A program made the position numbers and the translations under genes. The notes beneath the pieces were generated by a model. The model was given only the letters and a program-made list of their open reading frames with translations. It did not search any database and was not told the origin of the DNA. From Amphiscolops sp. MND2022 (Eukaryota), in the NCBI GenBank assembly GCA_964187785.1, contig OZ076409.1, forward strand, positions 42,100,001 through 42,160,000: 60,000 bases of DNA, written 5' to 3'. This document shows, one piece after another, positions 1-26,624 of this stretch (position 1 is the stretch's first letter; each line of letters begins with the position of its first letter).

Positions 1-3000
1 GGTGTTCTATTGCCTTTGCATTTTCGGGAATACCTGTGTTACGTGCGGTGAGATCTTCAGTGTTGAGCGCGTAGTTGGTCTCGTTTACTTCATGACTTTG
101 GTTGTCTGTGCAGGCTTCATCATCTGCATCGCTATTGATGGAGCTGTAAGTATTCTGAGACGAATCGGAAGTGCTATCCCTTGTCCCGGATCTGATTTTT
201 AGCTCTGAAAATTTTCCTAGTTCTCTTCCAGCGTCGAGACAACTCTGTGCTGACTCTATTTTCGGCAGGTTAGGTTCCTCGTAGATATTGTTAACTGTGA
301 AGTTATTTCCATCGTTTTGTAGGTGAAGAATTTTTCGTTCATCTCCTTTTTCGTACAGGATGGGGTAGAAATCGTTTTTTGACGTTTCTTCGTTTTCTTC
401 GTGTTTTATTTTGTAGTGTATTTGGGTTCCATGCTCGTCGAAGAAGTGAATATCGTTCGGTAGGATTTTGTGACTGAGTTGATGTTTTTTGTGTTCTTCT
501 ATCGATACGTTTCTGCTGAGTATATCAGGGAAGGCTAAATTGCTTCCTGGGGTCCAAATTATCTTGAGATTTGGGAATTTAGAGATTATTACTTGGTACC
601 TGAAGAAACGCGGTGAAACTTGTCCTTTTCGTCCCCAGAGATAAAGAATTGGTTTGTGGTCACAATATAAGTAAATTGGAAAGGGAGATCCAATGATATA
701 GTGTTCGTAGGTTTGTAATGCTGAGACTATTCCACATAGTTCTCTATGTAGAGTAGACATTTTTTGTTCTTCTTTTGCGAAGACTCTGGAATTGAAAGAA
801 ATGATCCGTTTCCCTTCTGGAAATTGTTGTATGAGGATACATCCTGTCCCTACGTTGGACGAGTCGACGTGTATATGAAAGGGATATTTTGTTGAAGGTA
901 CCGCAAGAACTGTGTCTTCGCTGATTCTTTTCTTTATTTGTTGGAAGAGGTCTTCATGTTCTTGGTTCCAACAGAAATTTGTATCCTTTTTTGTGAGTTC
1001 GTAAAAGGGTCGACTATCGACGTGAAGGTTCTTGATGTAGCAGCTGTAGAAACCTAAGGCTCCCAAGAAGCTTTTCACTTCGGTTTTGGTTTTTGGTGAT
1101 TTGAGATTATGTAGGTCTCTTACTCGTTTAGCTACGGGTTGTATTCCTTCTGCTGCAATCACATGTCCCAAAAACTTGACTTTCCTCAAGAAGAAGAGTG
1201 TTTTGTCAGGTGCCGCTTTTAGTCCCGCTTTCCGTAGTAGGTTATGGTATTCTTGAATCACTGTGAACATTTCTTGTTTACTTTTCGCTTGCATCAACGT
1301 GTCGTCTATGTAGGTGATTGCTTGTTTCTTTTTAATGAGAGGTTCGAAGTGAATTGTCATCATTCGGCTAAAGAAGCTTGGTAACCCTTTAAGTCCGTAG
1401 AATCCTCTGGTGAAGGTGTATTGTTTCCCGCCTATGATGAAGCTTGTAAGTTTTTGTGTAGGCTCGTCTAATGGGACTTGGTGAAATGCACAGGAGAGAT
1501 CACTTACTGAGAAGATGTTCCCGTTGATTAGTGTCATTATGGTTTGGATCGGTTCTAAGGGCCAGGAGTAGTTTGTTAGATCCGTCACTGAATTTAGGTA
1601 TCTTGCGTCTATGATCAGTTTTACATAGTCGTGTTTTGGTTGTAGTATAATAGGATTTACGAATAAGGATCCCATTTCGTCGTCATCGCCCATCTCTCTG
1701 ATAATATCGGCGTCTTTGAGTTGTGTGAGTAGCTTCTCTAACTTTTCTCTTAGGTGAAGTGGTACTTTGCTGGGTCTCTGTCTCTTCAGGATTGCTCCAG
1801 GTTCGAGTTTGATGTTAAATTTCTGTCTGGTTTTTCCTACGTCGAATTTGTGTTGGGAGTATACATCTCTCGCATCCATTAGTAGGTCTATTAGGAGCAC
1901 AAGTTCCTCGTCAGTAAGGTCTGAGTAGCGAAAGTCGAATTCTTTGATGTATTGCACTGCTTCTTTGTTCTGGTACTGAAGGTAATACTCGATCAGTCTT
2001 TCGTTGTCTTCTTTTTGCCTGAAGATTTTAAATTGCTCATCGCAGGGTGGTTGACAAGACTTTGCGTCACTCGTAAAGTCTGTCTCCAGCTCTCTATGTT
2101 TAAGGTGAAATTGCTCGGAAAATTGTTGTATCTCGTCTTCCAGCGCGTATTCGGGGTCTCCTCTCGTAGTCATAGCATAGACGTCTAGTTCATTTCTTGT
2201 ATAAATTCGGAGTTGTATTTCCGAGTAGGCAAAAACATCTTGAATAATTTGTGTCACATCTTGCCATTGGAAATCTTCTAGTTCTGACGCTTCTCGTAAC
2301 ATAGAAATGGTCTTGATACAATTCATTTTGGCGTGTGCTTTTAGAGTCTTCAGCGTTTGGACTAAGATTTGTGGGTCGATTTTGTCTTTTGATTTAGCTT
2401 TTGTGATTAGGACGTATATGAATCGTTTTAGATTCATGTCCCAGTAAGGTATTGTATCCCCCTTGAGTGGTTTCTGTTTTGCGCAAGATTCTTTTAACAA
2501 GGGTATGTTCGTTAGGATTTCTTTCGAGAAGCCTTTGGCTGGCTTCAGATCTGCCGGGACAAAGATCATGATGGAGTCGGGTCTGCTGAGGATTGTAGTA
2601 GAATTTCCTCCTTCTATTCTGATGCAATCGTTCATATCTTGTGAAGGGATGGTGGAGTGCAACAGGAAACAGTCATTGTATTCTTCGTTTTCGTTTAGGA
2701 TAGCGTAGGCGAGTTCCGTAGGGTTTCTAACTTGGTATTTTGGAATTTCTTGGTCTAATACGTCGAGCAGAGAGTATCCAATAGTTCCTTTTACTAGGGT
2801 GATTGTATGGTTTTTGTTATTTTCCATGACGATTGGCAAAGTCTTCTCAAATCTTGTACAAAGGACATTTATAAAATTTAGTCCTGTAGAGACTGCTTTT
2901 CTGTTGGGTAGGAACGTAGATCCGGGAGGAAAGGAGTTCTTGGGGTTTTCCGGTGCAAATTTGTAACATCTTGTCGTCTTTGGTTCGATATACATTGAGT

Positions 3001-3511
3001 GAGGAATTCGGACTGAGAGTATTTGTGATACGTAGGGGTAACATTTGTTGAGTTGTAGACTGCCATAGCAGAAAGTATTTATAGGTCTTTTGAGTTCTAT
3101 GCCAGGAAGATCAAAGTGTATTTTGTTAACTTGTTCTTGACAGAAGTTCATTCCAAGGAGGTTTTGGGTCTTCATCTCTGTTATCCAGACTGTCAGTGGG
3201 AAGTTATGTTGTCCATCGGAATCGTAGTAGAGTTTGAGGGTGATGTATCCCATCATAGGGATGATCTGCCCAGAGTAGTTCCGTGTTGTGTTGTTACTTC
3301 TGCTGAGTTCGAGGTCTTGTTGAAATTGACAGAGTTCTCTAAAGGTCCTGTAGTTAATGATTGAAGATGTTGCCCCAGTGTCTAGTAGAAATTCGATTTC
3401 TAAGCCACTATCTTTTTGTGAGTCTCCGGCAGCAAAATAATAAAGATTAAGACTAAATTTTAGTGGGGCAGTGCTGCTGTTACGGTTTTTCGGAGACCTT
3501 AATAGTTTAAA
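1..3511 (-). CDS. pol: Gypsy Pol polyprotein (partial): protease, dUTPase-like segment, macrodomain, RT, RNase H, linker
   Basis: Manual translation in one frame: LLDTGATSSII (~3375), NLLGMNF, FYGLKGLPSFF, ITYIDDTL (~1300-1318), IHVDSSNVGTGCIL (~865), RELCGIV, CDHKPI. Absent from the ORF track, consistent with no stop before the window edge. Confidence 0.93.
3405..3511 (-). other. Programmed -1 ribosomal frameshift signal (U UUA AAC plus downstream structure)
   Basis: gag ends CCT TTA AAC TAT TAA; the -1 frame continues into the DTGA protease; a complementary stem starts 6 nt after the heptamer. Confidence 0.85.
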
Positions 3512-4951
3512 GGGCGAATATCGGCGACAGAGTTCACCGAGTAATCTGTTTCGAGAAACTGTACGGTGTTATGTCTTCCCATGTCGTTAGTTCTAGGGAA
3601 CCTTTGTTCGTAAGTTTGAGTGGGGGTGTTTGGTCTTTCGTTTCTGTTTTGTGGTCTATTAAAGACTGAGTTATTCTTTGGTGGAAGAGGCTGTATGTTG
3701 CGGTTGAAGGAGTTAGGCTGGTCTCTGTTGAAGTTGAACGGAGATCTTGCTCTTTGGGGCCCAGGAGAAACACTTCTGGAATTGTTAGAATTGTTTAGAA
3801 AAGGTCTTCTTCCTTCTTGTGAAAATCTTTGGTTACCAGGACTGAATCTTGTATTCATAGGTCGGCGTTCTGGGTTGAAATTTCTTCTTTGTGGTCTATC
3901 ATATTGGTTCCGGGCAGGGTTTGACTGCATGGCTCCAGCAAGTGCTAGTTGATGTGCCACAGCCATATGTTTTCTGATTTCTGAATCGGGTAGTCTAGTT
4001 TGGAATCTAGAACCATGTCCAGGTCCAGTTCTTTTGTTGTAATCGTTGGTGAACGTTATTCGTCTCTCTGGGTTGGATTCATTTTGAACTTTCTTGATTT
4101 CTTCATCTCTCATCTTCTTTCTGCACCAGTTAGGCGTATGCCCATTTGTTCGGCAGTAGCTGCAAAACCTGGTGGCCATTCTACGTCCTGTTGCGTTCGG
4201 ATCAACAGTTTTCTCTATTGCATTGATAGTGTTGTTCGTCTGTTCTTTGATTTGTAGCTTGATTCCTTTGATGTCTTCTCGCAATTCTTGGATGAGTGGG
4301 TCTGCGTGTGATTCTCCACCGGTGAGAGGTAGTTACTGTGTAAGAAAGGTCTTTGTTTATTACAGCTTGAGAGAACTGCTCCCAGGTTGCATTCGGATGA
4401 TCCATTAAGTATTCGTGTGCCTTTTCCCTCAGTTTCGGGGGTCGAAGGCCTCTCAGTGAGTAGTCAATGCACCTCTGTCTTCTTTGTCTGTCTTGTGCTG
4501 CTCTTTCGGCGTCTCTATTGTTCTGTGCGACTCCGGCTAGATCATCTGGCCATCCTTTTCCGACTACTATTTTAATTCTGTGTAGGAAGTTCTTTATTTC
4601 TTCTCCATCTCGTCTGATGACGTGTTCGGCTTCCATTCTGTGTCTAAATTTGTTTCTGCCATCTGCGAATCGCGTTATGAACCTCTCTCTGATTTCTGCC
4701 CAAGTGTTAGCGTCTGTGATGCTGGTCTCGAACCACTCTGCTGCGGGTCCTCTTAATAGTGTAGCAAAATAGGATTTTCTTCTGAAGTTGTAGTCATCAA
4801 GTGCTGGTCCGTTGGCCGGGGTATCACCGTGAGAAAACCGGAACTTCTTTTCAATGAGCTGTATGAATTGTTCAGGATCTTGATCTGGGTCTGTTCCTGT
4901 GAATTGGTCTCGGCCTAGGTCTGGATAAGCCAAGTAATTTTGCGCAGCCAT
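3499..4951 (-). CDS. gag: Gypsy Gag with zinc knuckle, broken by one frameshift near 4325
   Basis: ORFs 4951-4202 and 4284-3499 join at SYTVTTS/LTGGESHAD; retrotransposon gag-like LRGPAAEWF..TWAEIRERF; CSYCRTNGHTPNWC = CX2CX4HX4C. Confidence 0.9.
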
Positions 4952-5966: not shown

Positions 5967-5984
5967 GCCTCACTGGTCGCACCA
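5967..5984 (-). promoter_or_regulatory. Primer binding site (18 nt)
   Basis: TGGTGCGACCAGTGAGGC, 3 nt inside the LTR end; complement GCCTCAC-TGGTCGC-A-CCA has tRNA 3' end layout. Confidence 0.85.
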
Positions 5985-5987
5985 GTT

Positions 5988-7485
5988 TGTCGCACGCATG
6001 GATAAATTTCAGTTCTGCTATTTTACAGTTTCCTCTTTTAGAGGGGAATTCCAAATTTGTTATCCGTATTAGTCAGCCCAGCTATTACAACATTTGGCAA
6101 AGTGCTTTTCAGACAACTGTTGTTTTATTGAAGTAGAACAAGTAGAAAAGTCTCAATAACTTAATTTTTTTTGTAATACCGAAAAGAAAGTGCCTTGCGT
6201 GTACGTGCGAACAAAGGAACTTGCGTGAGTAAGTGCAAGGCAGTGAATGTAAATGAGCTCTCTGAACTATAGAAAAAAAAAACATATGTTAGCAAACTTG
6301 TTGAATTACATAAAAGAGTTGAACTTCAGACATATCAGTTTTTATTCAACTGTTTACAAGTATTCAGTCAAACTCACCAAATTTATTTGCCAGCAACCGA
6401 AGTAATATCTTAGCTATTTCAATTTAGAGCATAAATTGATGAAGAAATTTAGCATCGAAGGAAATTCATAGTAATTTCCTTTAGTTCGAAGAAAGTTTTT
6501 TTTACGAAAAATCCAGTTTTGGTGTTGTAATAACTTAGACAACACTATTTAATTTTATAGTCTCTACTCCTTTGTTTTAGGAATAGCATTAAGACTTTAG
6601 GAATAGCATCTTTTTTTTGAATATGGGAATGGTAAAGACAAATAAGTTAACAGGGGAAAACCGCAGAATTAAATCAGCAGAATTATTCTAAGATAGAATT
6701 TTAACAACCGCAGAATTAAATCAGCGGAATTATTATAAGATAGAATCCGCAGAATTGAATCAGCGGAATTATTCTAAGATAGAGTTTAGTTAGAAGGAGG
6801 GAGAGTAAAAAATCTCCTCTAAAAGAAAAAATCTAAGATATTTTCGACTCACCCAACTGGAGACCAAGTTGAATTGAAGAGAATTTTCTAAGATAGAAAA
6901 TTCTGTTGGGGAATAGAGAAAAGGAAAAGATAAGTTTTTGCTTGAGGAAAGGGAGAAAAGGAGGAAAGTTTGACTTTATAAGTCTGAGATAAGACAAGTG
7001 CAATGTAAGCAAAGAGAAAGTGGAGAATAAGAGTCGAGGGGGAGAAGGGGGAGAGTAAGTGTAAGAGAAGTAGAGGAATTGATAAGTTGAGGAGAGAGAG
7101 AGAGAGAGCTGTAAGTTGAGCTCAGCCGTCCGGCGGGAATGAATGAATCTCCAGCCTGTGCGCGCGGTATAAAAACAGTTCAGCACAGCTGTTGAAGTGC
7201 CTGGCCGGCATGTGTTGCATGCTACCAATGGTAGCTCAGCTTTAAAATTCAAATATCCGCGGTAAGAAATAGAAATTTTCACTAGTGCAATTCCTTTCCC
7301 GTAGTATTCCATTACTTATTACTCCACTTCGAGGCCGCCGCGTTATGGCCGCCGCCATATTTACTTCAACTTTCCACTCTCCACACAACGTTAGTTCAAG
7401 TTTTATGTTTCTCTTTGCACGTGTTATTTTTTATAATAGAAAGCGCCTTTTGGTGATTCGTTAGAGCGTTAGTCATAGCGCGACA
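5988..7485 (-). repeat. 5' LTR (~1498 bp)
   Basis: TGTCGC...GCGACA inverted termini, one end adjacent to the PBS; second LTR not in window so outer boundary is unconfirmed. Confidence 0.8.
6661..6783. repeat. ~38-bp motif x3 inside the LTR
   Basis: CCGCAGAATTAAATCAGCRGAATTATTCTAAGATAGA-like unit at 6661, ~6708 and ~6747. Confidence 0.9.
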
Positions 7486-7801
7486 ACTCATTCAAAAAAT
7501 AAACCACGGTCAGATTTTTTTTGACCCGGTAATATCTTTTGTATATTTTTTAAAATCCAAAAGATCCATTTCTTTAAATACGTCATTGCATTCATGAATC
7601 AAGTAGAATTTTCAATCTCGAATAACTTTGAAGGTTATCAACGTCCATCAATTTTTGTCCACAGAATCTCAAAATTGATCAATTTTCAGCATGCAACGGT
7701 TGGATGTCTATTATTTCAGAGATGTGTGATATACGAAATCGGTATGTTGAGAAATATGTTTGTTGGGGGTTCGTTCTAAGGTTACGGGAGGGGTCTAAAA
7801 G

Positions 7802-9047: not shown

Positions 9048-9537
9048 TTATGGTATACAAAAAGTATCTGAAACTTGGCCTGCAATTTTATTTCATTCAA
9101 TGTGTTTACTGTGTCATGATTTTTACTGAAAGCAAACTAAGGTTTGTTGCTTTAATAAAGGACAGCAATCCTTCACACTTGAACACAAGGTAATACTTCA
9201 AGTACAGCATAATGAAATTTTACAGACACTCATTTAAAAGCTCTCAGTGAACGTTAATAATTGAAAAGTTGACACTCGCTCTATTTCTGTCATCTTAATG
9301 GCTGAGAGAATTATCAGAGACGCCTCGCAAAAAGACCAGTTGTTCAGCCTTAAGAAAAAACTTGATTTTAGAGTTTAAATAACATTCCAACTCACGCAGT
9401 CATATTATAGCAAGCGGACAATACGGGACGTGGTATCATTCTATCGAAAGCAAAGGAAATAAAATTTGTCAGAACGCAGAAAAATGTTTAAAATTTTTTT
9501 AAGCTTGCCTTACTATTTCAAAAAATGACTGGTTAGT

Positions 9538-9689
9538 GCAACCTTTACACTCGAACAAATTTCTTAATCCAACACAGGCGAAGCCTTTCAAAAACTTCAA
9601 TGAGGAATTTGTATACAAATTCCTCATTGAAGTTTTTGAAAGGCTTCGCCTGTGTTGGATTAAGAAATTTGTTCGAGTGTAAAGGTTGC
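9538..9689. repeat. Perfect 152-bp palindrome without spacer
   Basis: 76-bp arms are exact reverse complements centred on GTA|TAC (9613/9614). Confidence 0.97.
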
Positions 9690-9911
9690 TATAGCCGCTA
9701 TTTTCACGCTGTAGCGATAAGTATTCCAGTTAGGAAAGGAGAGTGTAATTAGGCCTTCCAATAGCTAGAATTAGCGAAATAGCAAAGCAGTTACTGCTGT
9801 TATGTTTTTGCAATTACTCAACGACAATTAACCCAACACTATTGTCCACATTTTGCAACAACAACAATCACTTCGGCGTTCATTAAAAACCAATTCACTA
9901 ATAGTCTGTTC

Positions 9912-10699: not shown

Positions 10700-13600
10700 T
10701 CAAGACGTGTCCATCTCCTTATCTTCCTCTGCTTTCTCAGCGGACGTGTTTTCCTCGTTCTCCTGTTCCATGGGCTCCCCTTCAACTTTAGTGGCACCAC
10801 CCTCAGCTGAAGAAGCATCACCCTCCAAGGTTTCTCCCGTTGAGGCATGTGCCCCATTTTCAGAGGTATCCTTTTTCACTGAATTATTCAGAGCTTCCAC
10901 AAACTGCTTCAGGTCACCATTCGAAGCTGCTCTCAAAGCGTCTTCCCCTGAATCATCCCAGTAAATTAACTACGAGTTACGGCAAATCTTGATCAAAATT
11001 CTTTCTTTCAATTCAAATATTCCAGCTGGAACTGGGAAATGTTATAGGGAAGAATATTGTAAAAACAATGAAACTTCTTTCTGATCTTTGAACTTTTTTC
11101 AAACAATAATTTTTTTCTGGTCAATCAATGTTTTGGAGCAGAAAACTTTTAGGCATTTGAAAATTGACACTTATTCATAATGATAGTAGGGGGCGTTGGT
11201 TTGAGAAATTCGATGATGCAATGCCAGAATCTCCCTAGAACATTTCTAAGTTGCTTTCAAAAAACATATATATTAAACTACGTTTGATACATAATACAAC
11301 TTGAGAAAAAGAGAAATATTCTCGAGGGTTGATAATTAATGATGCTCACCTAAATTGAACTGACTGATGATAGGAGCTAGCTGGCCACTGGAGAAGGCGG
11401 TGGAGAACATGGAGAGTGCTTGCCGGAATTGAGGCGAATTCAGAGACTGCTTTAATTCATCCTTGACGCTGGGAATGAGGTCGCTCGGCTCCTGAGGAAC
11501 GTGCGGGGTTAGTCTGTTGCTCACTTCCTCCGAGCTTAGCACTGAGGCCAGATCCAGGGGTAGGGCTGCTGCCAAATTGGCTTGCTCTGGCCTGCAACCA
11601 AAAGTGCAATCAGTACTGACTGGATCTTTTGGACGGTTTTAGTTTTTATAAGCGGAAATATTATTGTACTCATGATTCATTTCTACCATGTTTCAGTAAC
11701 TATGCCATGCCAGTGGACGTTGCTATGAATGTCTCATGTTTGTTGTTTACAACTGATGTTTGTCTTTCAGTAACCGATGATGCTTCAATGCTTCCCAATT
11801 TAACTAAATTTTCAACAAAAAAACTACGCTCTAAATCACTTCTGGGTTTATCAACTTCTTTAAAATTCTAATAACATTGGTGTAACATTTGGAAAAAATA
11901 TTCGTTGATGCATCCCGGTGATTTAATCATCGGCTATTGTTGTATCTCGTTAGAATACTTGTTGAAAAAAGTTTATCATGTAAAATTCAACTATTCTCTA
12001 GCTCTGTTCTTTTTGTATTAATATGTAAGAGAGAACATCATCTGCATGTGGCAGGCAGGTACATACTATAAATAGCATCATTGTCGATATAGACAATAAA
12101 TAGAAATGAGGCAGACTAATTAGTTTCAAAATTCAGTTCGTCTGTCCTCCACAGCTATACTTTCACACAGACGCAAATAACTTTTTTTCTGAACGTCATT
12201 TACCGCTCAGAGAATACTAGCAAAATCATGCTGAGAAAACAGAAACTTTCCATGAAACTTCTTCAACCTTACTACCAGTTCAAACTTTATACACAATGAC
12301 AGACGTTTCTAAAAAAACTCATTTTTTAAAACAAAAATCCGCCATCGTTTATCTAACAATTGGGGGAAATGACAAAACTACACATTCTGAACATGACGCG
12401 AACTTAGCCACTGAGCTTAATATGATCAGTATATTGAGATTTTCACATTTAACATGAAACAGTAACACTCTAAAATTGGCTTCAGCGTGCAGCTACAAGA
12501 TGATAAGGAGATATCTTGACATTTTCGATAAACTTGTTGCGGGGAAAACGAAAAACACAGTCGCGACATAATTATGTGATCTCAATTTATTAGGACTTGA
12601 GCTAAGAAATTATTCCTTAGTTATTTATCAGCTTTAACTAAGTATTCGATGTTTAAGTAGATATACATATATCAGGACTAAGATATCGATGAAAAACAAT
12701 CATTAACAATTACAAAGAAGAACTGAAATATTTAATCACATACACTCGACATGAAACAGCACTTATCAAGCGGAAATGAATTAAGAATGGCGAAGCGAAT
12801 GTAATCATAATCAAAATATAGATGCAAAATCCTTGAAATGAGCCAAAAACCGATCAAAGTTTTCAAAGATCAATTTCCCAATTTTGAGAAAGACCTCCTC
12901 GTTTATTTCAACTAACATTTGTTTTTTTGGTTACTGCTATTCGAAGCACAATGCCCAAAGTATAACCGACTCGTAAAAATATCATGTTCTATTTTCGTTT
13001 TAACAACCATATTAACCAAAACCGCTTTTCTCTTGCCAATGAGCTTCATGTATACAATGGGTGAAAATATATAAAAGGAATATCGAAAAGATTTCAAGCA
13101 AAGCTAATTGAAAAACATGCGGTGTGCGTTCATTTCACGCACATTCATTTAACCCCATGTTCATTTCACACCATATTGTAATTATACAAACGCGTTTCGC
13201 CTTAATTAACCAATTAACGACTCAACTACTCAACTTTGATGCCTATTGTCTATTTTGAGTCAGCTTTGATTTGAACTGAGCGTGGGGTGAAATGAATGTG
13301 GGGTGAAATGAACGTGGAGTGAAATGAATGTGGGGTGAAATGACGAGGAGTGAAATGATTGTGGGGTTAAATGATACTAAACCAAAAACAACTTACGATG
13401 ACGAGGATGCTTGATTATTTCCACTCAGATTGCTCATAATATCTTGAAATTCTGCCAGCTGAATGGGTGCCGGAGCCTGGCTGCTCACTGGCCTGGATGG
13501 CCTCAATGAACTGTTCTCAGATGTCCTGGCACTTCGAGCTCTGGATCTAGGGTCACCAGTATTAGCTCCACCCAGTCTGGGTCCAAGAGCCCCCGACTGG

Positions 13601-15754: not shown

Positions 15755-16927
15755 TGAAGAAATGAATATATAAATCACATTTGTTACCCTGTAGGGTGCA
15801 CAAAACTCAAGTTTTCCACGTTTACAGCGGACACAGTCGGTGACCAATTTACAATACATACTGAGGTGCGTTAATCTTACGGTGCTTGTCAAAATCATCA
15901 GTTGATCAAGTTTCAGAATAGTGGGGTTTTGTTGATAGCACTTGCTTAGGTATTTTGCACGCAAGTCTTGTAACTCGGGGCAGACCAGTGAAAAGTGATC
16001 CTCATCGGCATTCACCTGATTATTACAGAGTGGACAAGGCGTCTCCTTTACCCCTGTATTTTTTCCTGACATCTGTTATAGTCAGTGCAGCACATCGAAA
16101 TCTACTCAATTCAATTCTATCTTTTGTCTTCAGGGTAAAAACATGGCTCTATCCGATATTTGTAATAATACGAAGCATGCACTCTGCAGAATGAGTTATT
16201 TTTCAATGAGGTGTTTCACTGTTGCATTGACACATCCTGTAGCTTGTTCTTGATATATTCTTTAAAGTGAGCTTCATTAACATTTTCGATAAAATGATAA
16301 GCACCGGGAATTCCGCATTCTATCAGTATTGCTTGAACACAGATAATCATTTATTTGGATGAGAAATTTTTCGTAGGTACATGTACATTAGGGACGAGTT
16401 TTTTGTCGTCGCTCAATCTTCTCAAGAACCCAAAACTCGAAGTCAAATTTGATAATTCATTTCACTTCTTCCTAATTCACTGTAAATTATTGCCTTTGGA
16501 GTTCGCAACTGTTCACCACGTTTAAAAGCGTTCGCAAAAAATTCTGATGAAAAATTTCAAAATGTTCACATCCCCAAACTTCGCAGCCATACCTTAGGAT
16601 CGGCAGAATAATCGAGTCGAACAAGTGTAGTTTTGTCTGTATTGCGACTTCATGACCACTTGTTTCGGCTCTCAATTTGAATAACGCTTTCCTTGCTTTG
16701 TCAACGTTAATTTTTATCGTTAGTTGAAAGCTATTGTTGTACTTCAAAATTACCCCTAAATAGCAAAAGCTGTTTGTTTCTAAAAACTCTTTGAATTGGG
16801 CTGTTGTTTATGAACATCATTGACGATTTACGAACTTTTCCCTGGACAAGATCATATATCTTGTTTTGGAACAGTTTATTCGATTATTAAAATTACTGGG
16901 AATTTGATATGCAGCATTCAAAGCGTT
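15755..16927 (-). pseudogene. 5'-truncated copy of the RTEX-like LINE
   Basis: Homologous to ~25440-26610 (KYNN..VDKA..LFDSIILPIL.YGCEVWG; CPLCNNQVNADEDHF..VC). Confidence 0.9.
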
Positions 16928-17362
16928 TCGCAAAATATCACAAAAATTGAAGGAGACGCTGAAAAATTTTCGAAAAAAAACGAAAAATGAGAATTTTGAA
17001 AAAGTCTCATAAAGCCAAAAAAATCAAAACCGGAGACCCTTTGGGCTTTTTGAAACTTTAGTTTGCTGCAAATTATCAAAAAAGTTGAAGGGGACCCTTT
17101 GGAGACAAAAACAATTCGAAAAAGCGTTCGCAAAAAAATTCTGATGAAAAATTTCAAAATGTTCACATCCCCGAACTTCGCAGCCATACCTTAGGATCGG
17201 CAAAATAATCGAGCCGAACAAGTGTAGTTTTGTCTGTATTGCGATTTCATGACCACTTGTTTCGGCTCTCAATTTGAATAACGCTTTCTTGGCTTTGTCA
17301 ACGTTAATTTTTATCGTTAGTTGAAAGCTATTGTTGTACTTCAAAATTACCCCTAAATAGCA

Positions 17363-23266: not shown

Positions 23267-26200
23267 ATGGAAAAGAAACTAAAATGATTTTTTATTAACG
23301 TACGAGGTCTGAATGCGAAAATAAGGTTGAACTTGATACAAGACGAAGTTAACAGGTACGATGTTATTGGCTTTGCAGAAACGCTAAGCAACTGTTTTCC
23401 TTCCAAATAGTTCGAGAGTTTTGACATCTTTTTTGGCGATGATCATAAAATATTAAAAGGGTATCATGGATTGGCACTTTTAGTCAGGAAAGATATACCG
23501 CATTACTTTTTTGAAACAGATCTTGGTCTGTGGGTTCGGATCCCAAACTTCGAAGCTCCGTTATTGGTAGGATTGTATTATATGCCCTGTGAAAATTGTA
23601 GAAACTGGAATAAGGATACCTTCGCATCAATTTTGGAAGATATAGGACGAATAAAAACAGAAGACAGTGAAATGGTTGTAATGGGGAATTTTAATGCAAG
23701 AACTGGCACCATGCAAGATTATATAGACATAGATGGCGAAGATCTTCAGCCATCTGAACGAACAAACAAAGACTCTAAAGTAAATACAAATGGACGGTCA
23801 TTGATTGACGTATGTAAAACAACTGATATGATGATACTGAACGGGCGAAGTGGCAAGGATAGAGGTGTTGGTAACTTTACTTGTAACAATTACAACGGAA
23901 AGAGTGTGGTAGATTATATAATAGCTGACAATTCGTTGATAGATAAACTGTTAAATTTTGAATTAAAACAGTTTGATCCAAGTCTATCAGACGTCCACTG
24001 CGGTCTAAAAGTTGAAGTTTTAAGAGCTATAGATGTGGAAGTTAATAAAAACAATGAATGTATCGGTGGAACGAAAAAATTCTGGAATGATGTGTTGAAG
24101 TCCAATTTTTTAAGGTCACTGGAAAATCAAGACCTTAGTAACATTTGTAATTTGCTAAAAAATAAAAATGCAACATTGTCTGAAATCAATGAAATTGATC
24201 GAGAATTGAGACGTATACTTGTTGAATCTGCAGAAATATCTAATGTTTTACGTACCCCACGTCGAGTGCCTAGAAAAAACCAATGGTTCGACATGGAATG
24301 TCATGTAAAAAGGACTCAATATAGAAGTATGTGTAGGAACTCGCTAAGCATAACTCAAAAAAAGCAGCGCTGAAAAGTGACAAAAACTTTATACTCCTGA
24401 AAAAGAAAACGTTCTTGAAAAATTTCAATGAAAAACTATTGAGACTACGATCGAAAAACTCTAAAGAATACTGGTTGGTAATAGGGAGTTTGAAATGTAA
24501 AAGCTCTCTCCCCAAATTACATGTGAAAAGTTTCTCTGAACACTTTCAACATTTGCATTTGCTACCATCGAGCTTTTGTATTGATGATGTAGAGTCCACC
24601 GAAAGGGACATCAATGTTGAATTGAATAAAAATTTTAGTTGTGAAGAGGTGAGGGAATCTCTGCAAAATCTTAAATGCGGGAAATCAGCTGGTCAAGATA
24701 ATATTCAACAGGAATTTCTGAAATATGTTCCTGGGAACCTTGTCGAAGTACTTAATAGTTTTTTCAACCTAGTTTCAAAGACAGGAATTGTCCCTGATGA
24801 TTGGGCTCTGTCAACTATATGTCCAATTCATAAGAAGGGACCAATGACCGACCCTAATAATTATCGGGGAATTTCGTTGATTAATTGCATCGGAAAAGTT
24901 TTCTCGTCAATTATAAGTACCAGAATCAAACACTATTTAGATTTAACAAACAGAATTGGTTCGGAACAGGCTGGCTTCAGAAAAGGACACGGCTGCGAGG
25001 ACCATACTTTCTGACTAAAATTCTATCTTCGTATTTGGCAAATGGCGAAAGAGTGTACGCCACCTTTCTCGATTATGAAAAAGCATTCAATTTAGTTGAT
25101 CGAGCAATTCTTTGGAAGAAGTTACAGGATCATAATATCAATGGAAATGTTTTCAATGTCATACGTAGTCTTTAATCAAAAACAAAAGCATGTGTCAAAG
25201 TGGGCAACTGTTATTCTAGTTTTTTCAAATGTGAGGTTGGTGTTAGGCAGGGTGATAATTTATCACCACTATTGTTCACAATTTTTGTAAATGACTTCAA
25301 AGCATACTTGCAAAATCATTGTAACGGATTGAACTTTCTATCGAACTCAATGAAGAGCAACCTGGATGTCGACGAGAAAATCTTTGCACTTCTGTATGCT
25401 GATGATACCATTATTTTGACAGAAAGCGAAAATGGCATGCAAAAAACCTTAAATGCTGCATGTCAATATTGCAGAAATTTTAATATTCTAGTAAATTGCT
25501 CCAAGACAAAACATATGATCTTCTCCAGGGGAAAGGTTCGTAAATCGACAGTGATGTTTATAAACAACAGCCCAATTGAAAGAGTTGACAGTTTTTGCTA
25601 TTTAGGAGTGATTTTCAAGTACAATAACACCTTTCGACTAACGATAAAAAACAACGTTGACAAAGCAAAGAAGGCGTTGTTCAAATTGAGAGCCGAAACA
25701 AGTGGACATAAACTCGCAATACAAACAAAACTACACTTGTTTGACTCAATTGTTTTACCGATCCTAACCTATGGTTGCGAAGTTTGGGGACATGAACTTT
25801 ATGAACAGATTGAAAGTTTCCATCGGAATTTTTTGCGAACGCTTTTAAACGTTAGGAACAGTACTCCAAATGCTATGATTTACGGTGAATTAGGTGGAAA
25901 TGAAATAAAATACAAATTTGGCTTCGAATTTTGGGTTTCTGGAAAAAGTTGAGCGACGACAAAAACAAACTCTCGTCCCTTATGTACAAGTACTTACGAA
26001 AAATTTTCCCCTCAGACAAATGGTTGTCTTGTGTTCAAACAGTACTGATAGAATGCGGAATCCCCGGTGCTTATCACTTTACCGAAAATGTTAATGAAGC
26101 TCACTTTAAAGAATATACCAAGAACAAGCTACAGGATGTGTCAATACAACAGTGGAACACATCAGTGAAAAACAACTCACTCAGCAGATTGTACGCTTCA

Positions 26201-26624
26201 TATAAGTACAAATATCGAATCGAGCCATATGTTTTTACCTTGAGGACAAAACCCAGAATTGAATTGAGTAGATTTCGACGTGCTGCACTGATTATAACAG
26301 ACGTCAGGGAAAAATTTACAGGGGTAAAAGAGACACATTGCCCACTTTGTAATAATCAGGTGAATGCTGATGAGTACCATTTTTTACTTGTCTGTACTGA
26401 GTTAAAAGACTTACGTGCAAAATACCTAAGCAAGTGCTACCAACATAACCCCAGTCTGCTGAAACTTGACCAACTGATGAACTTGACAAGCACCGTAAGA
26501 TTAACGCACCTTAGTATGTATTGTAAATTGGTCACCGACCGTGTCCGCTGTAAAATTGAAAGTTTGAGTTTTGTACACCCTTCGGGGTAACGAAAGTGAA
26601 TTAAATATTCATTCATCATTCATC
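23267..26624 (+). mobile_element. LINE ORF2 (APE + RT + CCHC), frameshifted; RTEX-like; ATTC-type 3' tail
   Basis: INVRGL, GNFNARTG, SVVDY, SDVH (APE); NYRGISL, EQAGFR, GVRQGDNLSPLLF, LYADD (RT); YGELG; CPLC..DEYHFLLVC; tail ATTCATTCATCATTCATC. Clade is inferred from motifs. Confidence 0.9.

Follow-up and report, generated by a model that had tools for sequence, protein, structure and literature searches.

We analysed a 60,000-nt window of the Amphiscolops sp. MND2022 genome (GCA_964187785.1, contig OZ076409.1, positions 42,100,001-42,160,000), the left end of which carries part of an LTR retrotransposon on the minus strand. The pol open frame of this element (2-3568) exits at the window edge and encodes 1854 aa at full length in the genome. 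The 144-aa translation behind the original prediction lies in this frame, at exactly 2195-2626 on the minus strand, and makes up Pol residues 315-458; the plus strand of the segment is rich in stops. A genome search in which the best 150 of 922 candidates were scored returned 53 full-length copies as its top matches (83-100% identity), 24 of them with open frames of at least 1800 aa. We refer to the window family, represented by these top full-length copies, as family A and to a 66% subfamily as A2; families B (same genome) and C (elsewhere) are relatives described below. The window element is a member of a young, multicopy, env-bearing Ty3/Gypsy family, and contains the following features:

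1-3568, minus strand: pol open frame (1854 aa), extending left of the window to the integrase
575-970, minus strand: RNase H (PF17919/PF17917)
1079-1936, minus strand: reverse transcriptase (RT), limits approximate (PF00078, E 5e-19)
2195-2626, minus strand: TARG1/OARD1-type (ALC1-like class) macrodomain with a remodelled ADP-ribose pocket (phmmer, structure model, Foldseek, pocket count, Atlas)
2276-2299, minus strand: remodelled diphosphate-binding loop, with Glu in place of both Gly123 (2282-2284) and Asp125 (2276-2278)
2399-2401, minus strand: retained codon for the Lys that corresponds to catalytic Lys84 of TARG1 (alignment; 37 of 37 family-A copies)
2654-3133, minus strand: conserved ~160-aa domain (Pol residues 146-305) between protease and macrodomain, likely a degenerate dUTPase-like fold (weak, transitive)
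3137-3406, minus strand: aspartic protease, Pol residues 55-144 (PF13975, E 1.2e-5)
3499-4951, minus strand: gag, in two frames in the window copy, which breaks near 4325, and in one frame of 486 aa in siblings
3505-3511, minus strand: TTTAAAC heptamer in slippery register just 5' of the gag stop, predicted -1 frameshift site leading to Gag-Pol
5968-5984, minus strand: putative primer-binding-site-like stretch just inside the LTR, proposed from sequence
5988-7490, minus strand: 5' LTR, about 1.5 kb long and sharing 99.5% identity with the 3' LTR at L032:7698-9196

The full element reads 5' LTR, gag, pol, env, a 200-aa ORF, a 327-aa TRAF-like ORF and 3' LTR, with everything from env onward lying beyond the window. 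Pfam located the integrase in a sibling copy, and the order protease-RT-RNase H-integrase, together with LTRs and gag, is that of a Ty3/Gypsy element. The two LTRs share 99.5% identity across 1505 nt, which marks the insertion as recent. The TTTAAAC heptamer, which we take to be a slippery site, precedes the gag stop in the window copy and in all 10 of the further copies checked from families A and B, and would drive a -1 frameshift that yields a Gag-Pol precursor. Env, the third ORF (719 aa), matches PF24664 (E 3.4e-31) as a class III-like fusion protein, the glycoprotein type expected of an errantivirus-like element, and has a dN/dS of 0.03. All dN/dS values given here are pairwise NG86 estimates, with A vs A2 and A vs B left out for saturated dS.

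Several further features accompany the element. A second partial copy (L032:4086-9196), 99.8% identical, lies directly after the 3' LTR and shares it; its gag frame is unbroken and its pol is cut inside the macrodomain, and it represents either a tandem insertion or an assembly duplication. The TRAF-like ORF between env and 3' LTR occurs in families A, A2 and B (L064:4529-5509, L063:5432-6583, L065:6097-7119). In the window element it spans L031/L032 as a 327-aa frame with the same start as the sibling's, which encodes a coiled coil and a TRAF-type MATH domain (PF22486, E 1e-11; TRAF5/TRAF4 chains, E 2-4e-7). The MATH domain has a dN/dS of 0.13 (one pair), and the N-terminus of the ORF in A and A2 shows a PAM2-like motif (Pfam E 0.08 in one). 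The 200-aa ORF that follows env and precedes the TRAF-like ORF (L031:208-807, minus strand) has a C-terminus common to A, A2 and B and gave no match in a Pfam search. Between pol and env, several A subfamilies contain an antisense ORF of 213-238 aa (L031:4793-5446, plus strand), with a similar ORF in A2 and no convincing match in Pfam. Elsewhere the window holds an 83-nt near-perfect hairpin (9531-9696) and families of short repeats, both direct and inverted, dispersed over 15637-45630 and including long inverted arms at 15814-17362 and 25529-26561. An open frame at 11336-11638 on the minus strand, which we take to resemble an ADRM1/Rpn13 exon, suggests that a host gene adjoins the element.

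A TARG1-type macrodomain with a remodelled pocket

Searched against the PDB with phmmer, the macro segment gave six matches, five of which are chains of human TARG1/OARD1 (E 1.3-1.4e-9). An AlphaFold model built from an 8-row alignment has a mean pLDDT of 88.9, and Foldseek placed TARG1 in the best eight positions (TM 0.85-0.88) and DarG in the ninth (TM 0.81), giving the macro fold that this check had been proposed to look for. An Atlas search returned Macro/OARD1-like clusters at 0.93-0.94. The macrodomain of sister family B matches TARG1 at E 2.7e-24, and the window domain nests among such intact-motif relatives in a macrodomain tree. By modelled fold and by descent, window 2195-2626 is confirmed as a TARG1-type macrodomain, which upholds the central claim of the original prediction, a TARG1-like macrodomain inside a Gypsy Pol (phmmer E 1.3e-9, pLDDT 88.9, TM 0.87 to TARG1). 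The segment has no Pfam match at E<=1 and is 24-25% identical to TARG1, as might be expected of a chance resemblance or a neutrally decaying insert; we regard that explanation as extremely improbable, since it is already refuted by the fold match and the dN/dS values below, and a stop falls inside the macrodomain in just 3 of the 53 full-length family copies. The intact-motif relatives themselves reach only E 0.02-0.09 in Pfam, so Pfam-based surveys would miss TARG1-type macrodomains in elements.

The macrodomain lies between protease and RT, as had been claimed, with a spacing of about 85 aa to RT in the window Pol, but it does not directly adjoin the protease: a conserved domain of ~160 aa (residues 146-305) intervenes, and the same domain is present in macro-less relatives. 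It has no direct Pfam or PDB match. Fold prediction of the protease-macro interval gave pLDDT<50 for residues 1-169, an Atlas search on the interval returned unnamed clusters only, and no match emerged when profiles were compared with one dUTPase-like element region. A degenerate dUTPase-like fold is nevertheless the likely assignment, because of weak transitive matches (12-14 bits to PF00692-positive element regions) and a positional precedent reported for a planarian element (PMC6431247).

To describe the ADP-ribose pocket we took 124 TARG1-like rows from outside the clade, of which at least 80% agree at 30 positions: 19 in pocket loops that we defined from sequence and 11 in the core. The window domain keeps 6 of the 19 pocket positions versus 18 of 19 in family B (p 1e-4), and 8 of the 11 core positions versus 9 of 11. 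Lys84 and Asp125 are reported as the catalytic dyad of TARG1 (PMC5087735, PMC8501950, PMC7050489; the last prints Glu125). Across 37 family-A loci the lysine is kept in all, while the Asp125 position is never Asp and is Glu, preserving the carboxylate, in 36, in agreement with the predicted Lys retention and Asp-to-Glu change (phmmer alignment, family comparison). The Gly123 position, where 98% of the 124 outside rows have Gly, is Glu at all 37 loci. Of the features of an active TARG1-type hydrolase, the domain therefore has Lys84 and lacks both Asp125 and the Gly123 diphosphate-binding loop. The original prediction described both Gly-rich loops as altered, and this holds for the second. The change in the first loop is mostly shared with the intact-motif sister families, which read SKGFA there with Gly43 kept, and we rejected it as a mark of damage on that ground. 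As judged from these alignments, the decisive change is that in the second loop, Glu at the Gly123 position.

The G123E mutation of TARG1 is reported to abolish ADP-ribose binding and hydrolysis, to raise thermostability and to leave RNA binding in place (PMC5928194). Because 13 of the 19 conserved pocket positions are changed in the window family, including the equivalent of this binding-dead substitution, an eraser and an ADP-ribose decoy are both unlikely here; of the three roles first proposed (eraser, decoy or repurposed binder), the repurposed binder survives. An altered ADP-ribose chemistry, in which Lys and Glu serve an eraser of altered specificity, a trap or a decoy that counters host PARPs, would draw on the constancy of Lys84 (37/37), of Glu at position 125 (36/37) and of the Asp37 and Gly43 equivalents (both kept in 36/37), on the finding that constraint within the domain is strongest in the remodelled pocket, and on a host genome with 32 PARP-domain matches, many in frames of 900-2100 aa. 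SCO6735 offers a reported precedent for ALC1-class activity without the TARG1 dyad, although it retains the glycine loop (PMC5087735, PMC7050489). Weighing against such chemistry are Glu at Gly123, which alone is reported to end binding and catalysis by TARG1 (PMC5928194), and the loss of the His32, Cys33, Ser35, Pro118 and Ile120 equivalents, and we judge it rather improbable.

The same loop has been altered in other proteins. P0014, an outside relative about 52% identical over the aligned region, shares the remodelled motifs of the window domain and is acidic at the Gly43 position as well as at Gly123, and in the P0163 cluster the loop has been independently acidified at other positions in 6 of the 6 members covering it. 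The family-A domain is basic (pI 9.2-9.4; window 9.3) compared with that of family B (7.9-8.5), and some outside TARG1-like proteins are equally basic (9.5-9.7).

Origin of the insertion and selection on the domain

An RT-region search found 73 related Pols, nine of which carry a macrodomain, always placed after the 160-aa domain and before RT; among the macro-less rest, many are truncated or near-duplicates. We built a FastTree phylogeny of the RT-RNase H region from 32 rows (21 of these 73 Pols, 7 genome copies and 4 other Gypsy Pols), in which supports are local values rather than bootstraps and which, with no named reference RTs among its rows, addresses the relationships among these Pols. 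Every carrier of a protease-RT macrodomain falls into one clade (support 0.99), whose sister group consists of macro-less Pols that pass from the same 160-aa domain to RT in 69-86 aa; P0166, P0167 and P0169-P0171 are macro-less close relatives. Family A is sister to family C (0.95), and both B and C keep the full catalytic motif, Lys84/GCGLD. Family B, which also has env and the TRAF-like ORF, occupies at least 150 rows in its own genome search, and its macrodomain is 35-38% identical to that of family A. Loop and lysine are intact at 21 of 21 family-B loci (20 distinct places), and the family keeps the TARG1 site.

The macrodomain tree is broadly congruent with the RT-RNase H tree, with the exception of P0168, whose macrodomain lies outside the protease-RT macro clade and whose RT lies inside the macro-bearing clade. 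This conflict makes a second insertion possible, and P0168 may carry a separate one. The single clade and the broadly congruent trees make one insertion the simplest reading: most likely, an intact domain was inserted once and changed later in lineage A, the closest relatives being without a macrodomain. As to the donor, in a FastTree analysis with weak deep nodes the protease-RT macrodomains group neither with the candidate host TARG1 nor with the other element macrodomains of this genome.

Sibling copies have retained the domain without the neutral decay that would have told against the original prediction: dN/dS of the macrodomain is 0.02-0.09 in five unsaturated family-A pairs and 0.05-0.16 in family B, compared within family A with 0.01-0.025 for RT and integrase and 0.10-0.14 for the RNase H-integrase spacer. 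Among six family-A subfamily copies, variable codons in the pocket are synonymous-only in 18 cases and amino-acid-changing in one, versus 57 and 31 in the rest of the macrodomain (Fisher p 0.011, indicative only since the six copies are related). Family B shows a like pattern (12:0 in the pocket, 28:17 elsewhere). The family-A macrodomain is under strong purifying selection, tightest in the remodelled pocket, where several positions lie on core strands, so that constraint there may be structural. We also considered a whole-domain acceleration in family A and rejected it, because its macro-to-RT branch-length ratio (about 5.9) shows no burst against those of families B (6.3) and C (4.6).

These data suggest to us, with roughly even confidence, that the window macrodomain is a pseudo-enzyme with a blocked pocket, kept for a non-catalytic contact with a nucleic acid or protein partner. 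In its proposed history, the ancestor of the clade would have gained a TARG1-type domain between RT and the dUTPase-like domain, at first an active enzyme that cleared ADP-ribose from Asp/Glu residues or from the ends of nucleic acids. Families B and C, whose intact motifs fit a predicted eraser role, would still be in this ancestral state, and ancestral and sibling domains alike may strip ADP-ribose from proteins of the element or from nucleic-acid ends within the particle. The domain would be made in low copy through the -1 frameshift and packaged with Pol. In family A, an acidic side chain would occupy the diphosphate site and shut the pocket; what is left would be a stable module, basic (pI 9.3) and subject to a new constraint, whose retained role would be a non-catalytic contact in the Gag-Pol precursor or particle.

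Another explanation is that the domain is a passive folded relic, which persists since the polyprotein must fold and be processed and is selected for stability rather than function. Consistent with this, G123E is reported to stabilise TARG1 (PMC5928194), the dN/dS of the family-A macrodomain lies mostly above that of RT and integrase, the macro-less close relatives named above replicate without it, and the pocket has been lost twice within the clade. An in-frame deletion that restores the macro-less arrangement looks possible, yet the macrodomain is kept in 53 of 53 top full-length matches, a count from a search blind to macro-deleted copies, and the surface loop at residues 110-117 varies only synonymously among the six subfamily copies. 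We consider a relic unlikely, though slightly less so than altered ADP-ribose chemistry, and favour the pseudo-enzyme kept for a binding contact.

TARG1 carriage in other retroelements and comparison with known systems

The original prediction rested its novelty on the position between protease and RT. This ground is weaker than claimed, and we rejected the position as a unique feature, because it is one of several. In a genome search with an outside TARG1-like protein (best 150 of 941 candidates scored), we examined 11 places and found TARG1-type domains between RNase H and integrase (L084/L091, L085/L092, L087), downstream of integrase (L086, L093), and as the last domain of one gag-protease-macro ORF carried by an LTR element of 8-9 kb (L083, 83-8399; L089; L090) that shows no trace of RT, RNase H or integrase. 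Counting the protease-RT site, TARG1 is carried at four polyprotein positions in this genome. Lysine, Gly123 and Asp125 are kept in all examined domains at the further positions, and the RT tree sets these lineages well apart from family A; L085 also gave a match to an F-type env (PF12259). The gag-protease-macro family, which is non-autonomous and present in high copy, has LTRs 98.5-99.7% identical, a macrodomain dN/dS of 0.19 (one pair), and at least 44 of the best 150 rows in similar frames of 833-846 aa. Outside this genome, 7 of 55 longer matches scanned (of 155) are retroelement proteins with a macrodomain, two sawfly records among them, placed after RNase H or after integrase-region domains; for P0106 the automatic annotation already names a macro-retroelement fusion. 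TARG1-type macrodomains also occur in invertebrate RNA viruses (P0009, P0129).

On the host side, L088:4556-5500 (minus strand) is a candidate single host TARG1 gene, with an intact C-terminal domain in a 315-aa frame; its domain groups with outside proteins and not with element macrodomains. Many of the catalytic domains among the 32 PARP-domain matches lie in uninterrupted frames of 900-2100 aa (G000 C4, C7, C8, C13), which suggests an expanded set of large PARPs. In DNA ligase 3 proteins (P0005, P0007, P0056, P0127), one of them named Lepeophtheirus salmonis, a TARG1-like macrodomain adjoins the C-terminal BRCT region.

RNA viruses and phages are established cases of conflict between macrodomains and PARPs. 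The links reported for retrotransposons are indirect, through SIRT6 MARylation in L1 silencing (PMC4695847) and restriction by ZAP (PMC4441479). The elements described here hint at an ADP-ribosylation-based defence against retrotransposons in the host, which gains weight because TARG1 occurs at four polyprotein positions in the genome. In a broader and more tentative scenario, possible but not one we would lean towards, the host restricts LTR retrotransposons by ADP-ribosylation and the elements answer with TARG1 erasers at four positions, even in an element lacking RT, RNase H and integrase; in the window family the enzyme would then have become a pseudo-macrodomain, its pocket re-lined to hold a different ligand (genomic RNA, cDNA or a protein of host defence), and the element would also have captured a TRAF-like adaptor. 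The window macrodomain is real, selected and more informative than a lone odd insert, with the eraser role predicted for its relatives. One genome offers TARG1 in several unrelated LTR lineages, with intact and pocket-blocked sisters and macro-less outgroups, as a comparative set that could show what the macro fold does once ADP-ribose reading stops, and the isolated domains could show whether ADP-ribosylation hits retroelement proteins or cDNA ends.

We found no paper describing a macrodomain in a Ty3/Gypsy Pol in a literature search that excluded subscription papers and Repbase reports, and term searches showed no macrodomain in PMC13524379, PMC6338049, PMC6431247 and bioRxiv 2021.11.30.470311. 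The main text of PMC13524379 has no macro, ADP or dUTPase term, and in its supplement the 4 of 10 matches listed are species names. Macrodomain ORFs are reported in fish epsilon-like endogenous retroviruses (PMC4977317, citing Basta et al. 2009); these resemble the window element as env-bearing, retro-transcribing elements with a captured macrodomain, but are described as Retroviridae with the domain in additional ORFs, whereas here it is inserted in a Ty3/Gypsy Pol upstream of RT.

The closest known protein is human TARG1/OARD1/C6orf130 (PDB 4J5S, 4J5R), with which the window domain shares the minimal macro fold (TM 0.87) and Lys84, and from which it differs by its embedding in a retroelement Pol, Glu at Gly123 and Asp125, and 6 of 19 pocket positions kept. 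The DarG macrodomain (PDB 5M31, 5M3E) has the next-best fold (TM 0.81) and a reported equivalent of the catalytic lysine (PMC8501950); the window domain is 18% identical to it, belongs to the eukaryotic TARG1 lineage and has no cognate DarT in sight. The characterised macrodomains of RNA viruses are presumably MacroD-type. Like the window domain, those that counter antiviral PARPs are carried in a replication polyprotein (PMC7729036), but the characterised ones are active, whereas the window domain is TARG1-type and predicted to be inactive. Among retroelements, errantiviruses with an HSV/gB-type env (Chary and Hayashi, PMC13524379) share the gag-pol-env Ty3/Gypsy plan and the class III-like fusion protein. 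The planarian giant Gypsy element Burro/GYPSM1 is reported to have env, MATH_TRAF_C and a dUTPase-like domain between protease and RT (PMC6431247); it differs in that no macrodomain is mentioned there, env is fused in frame and ORF1 is far larger.
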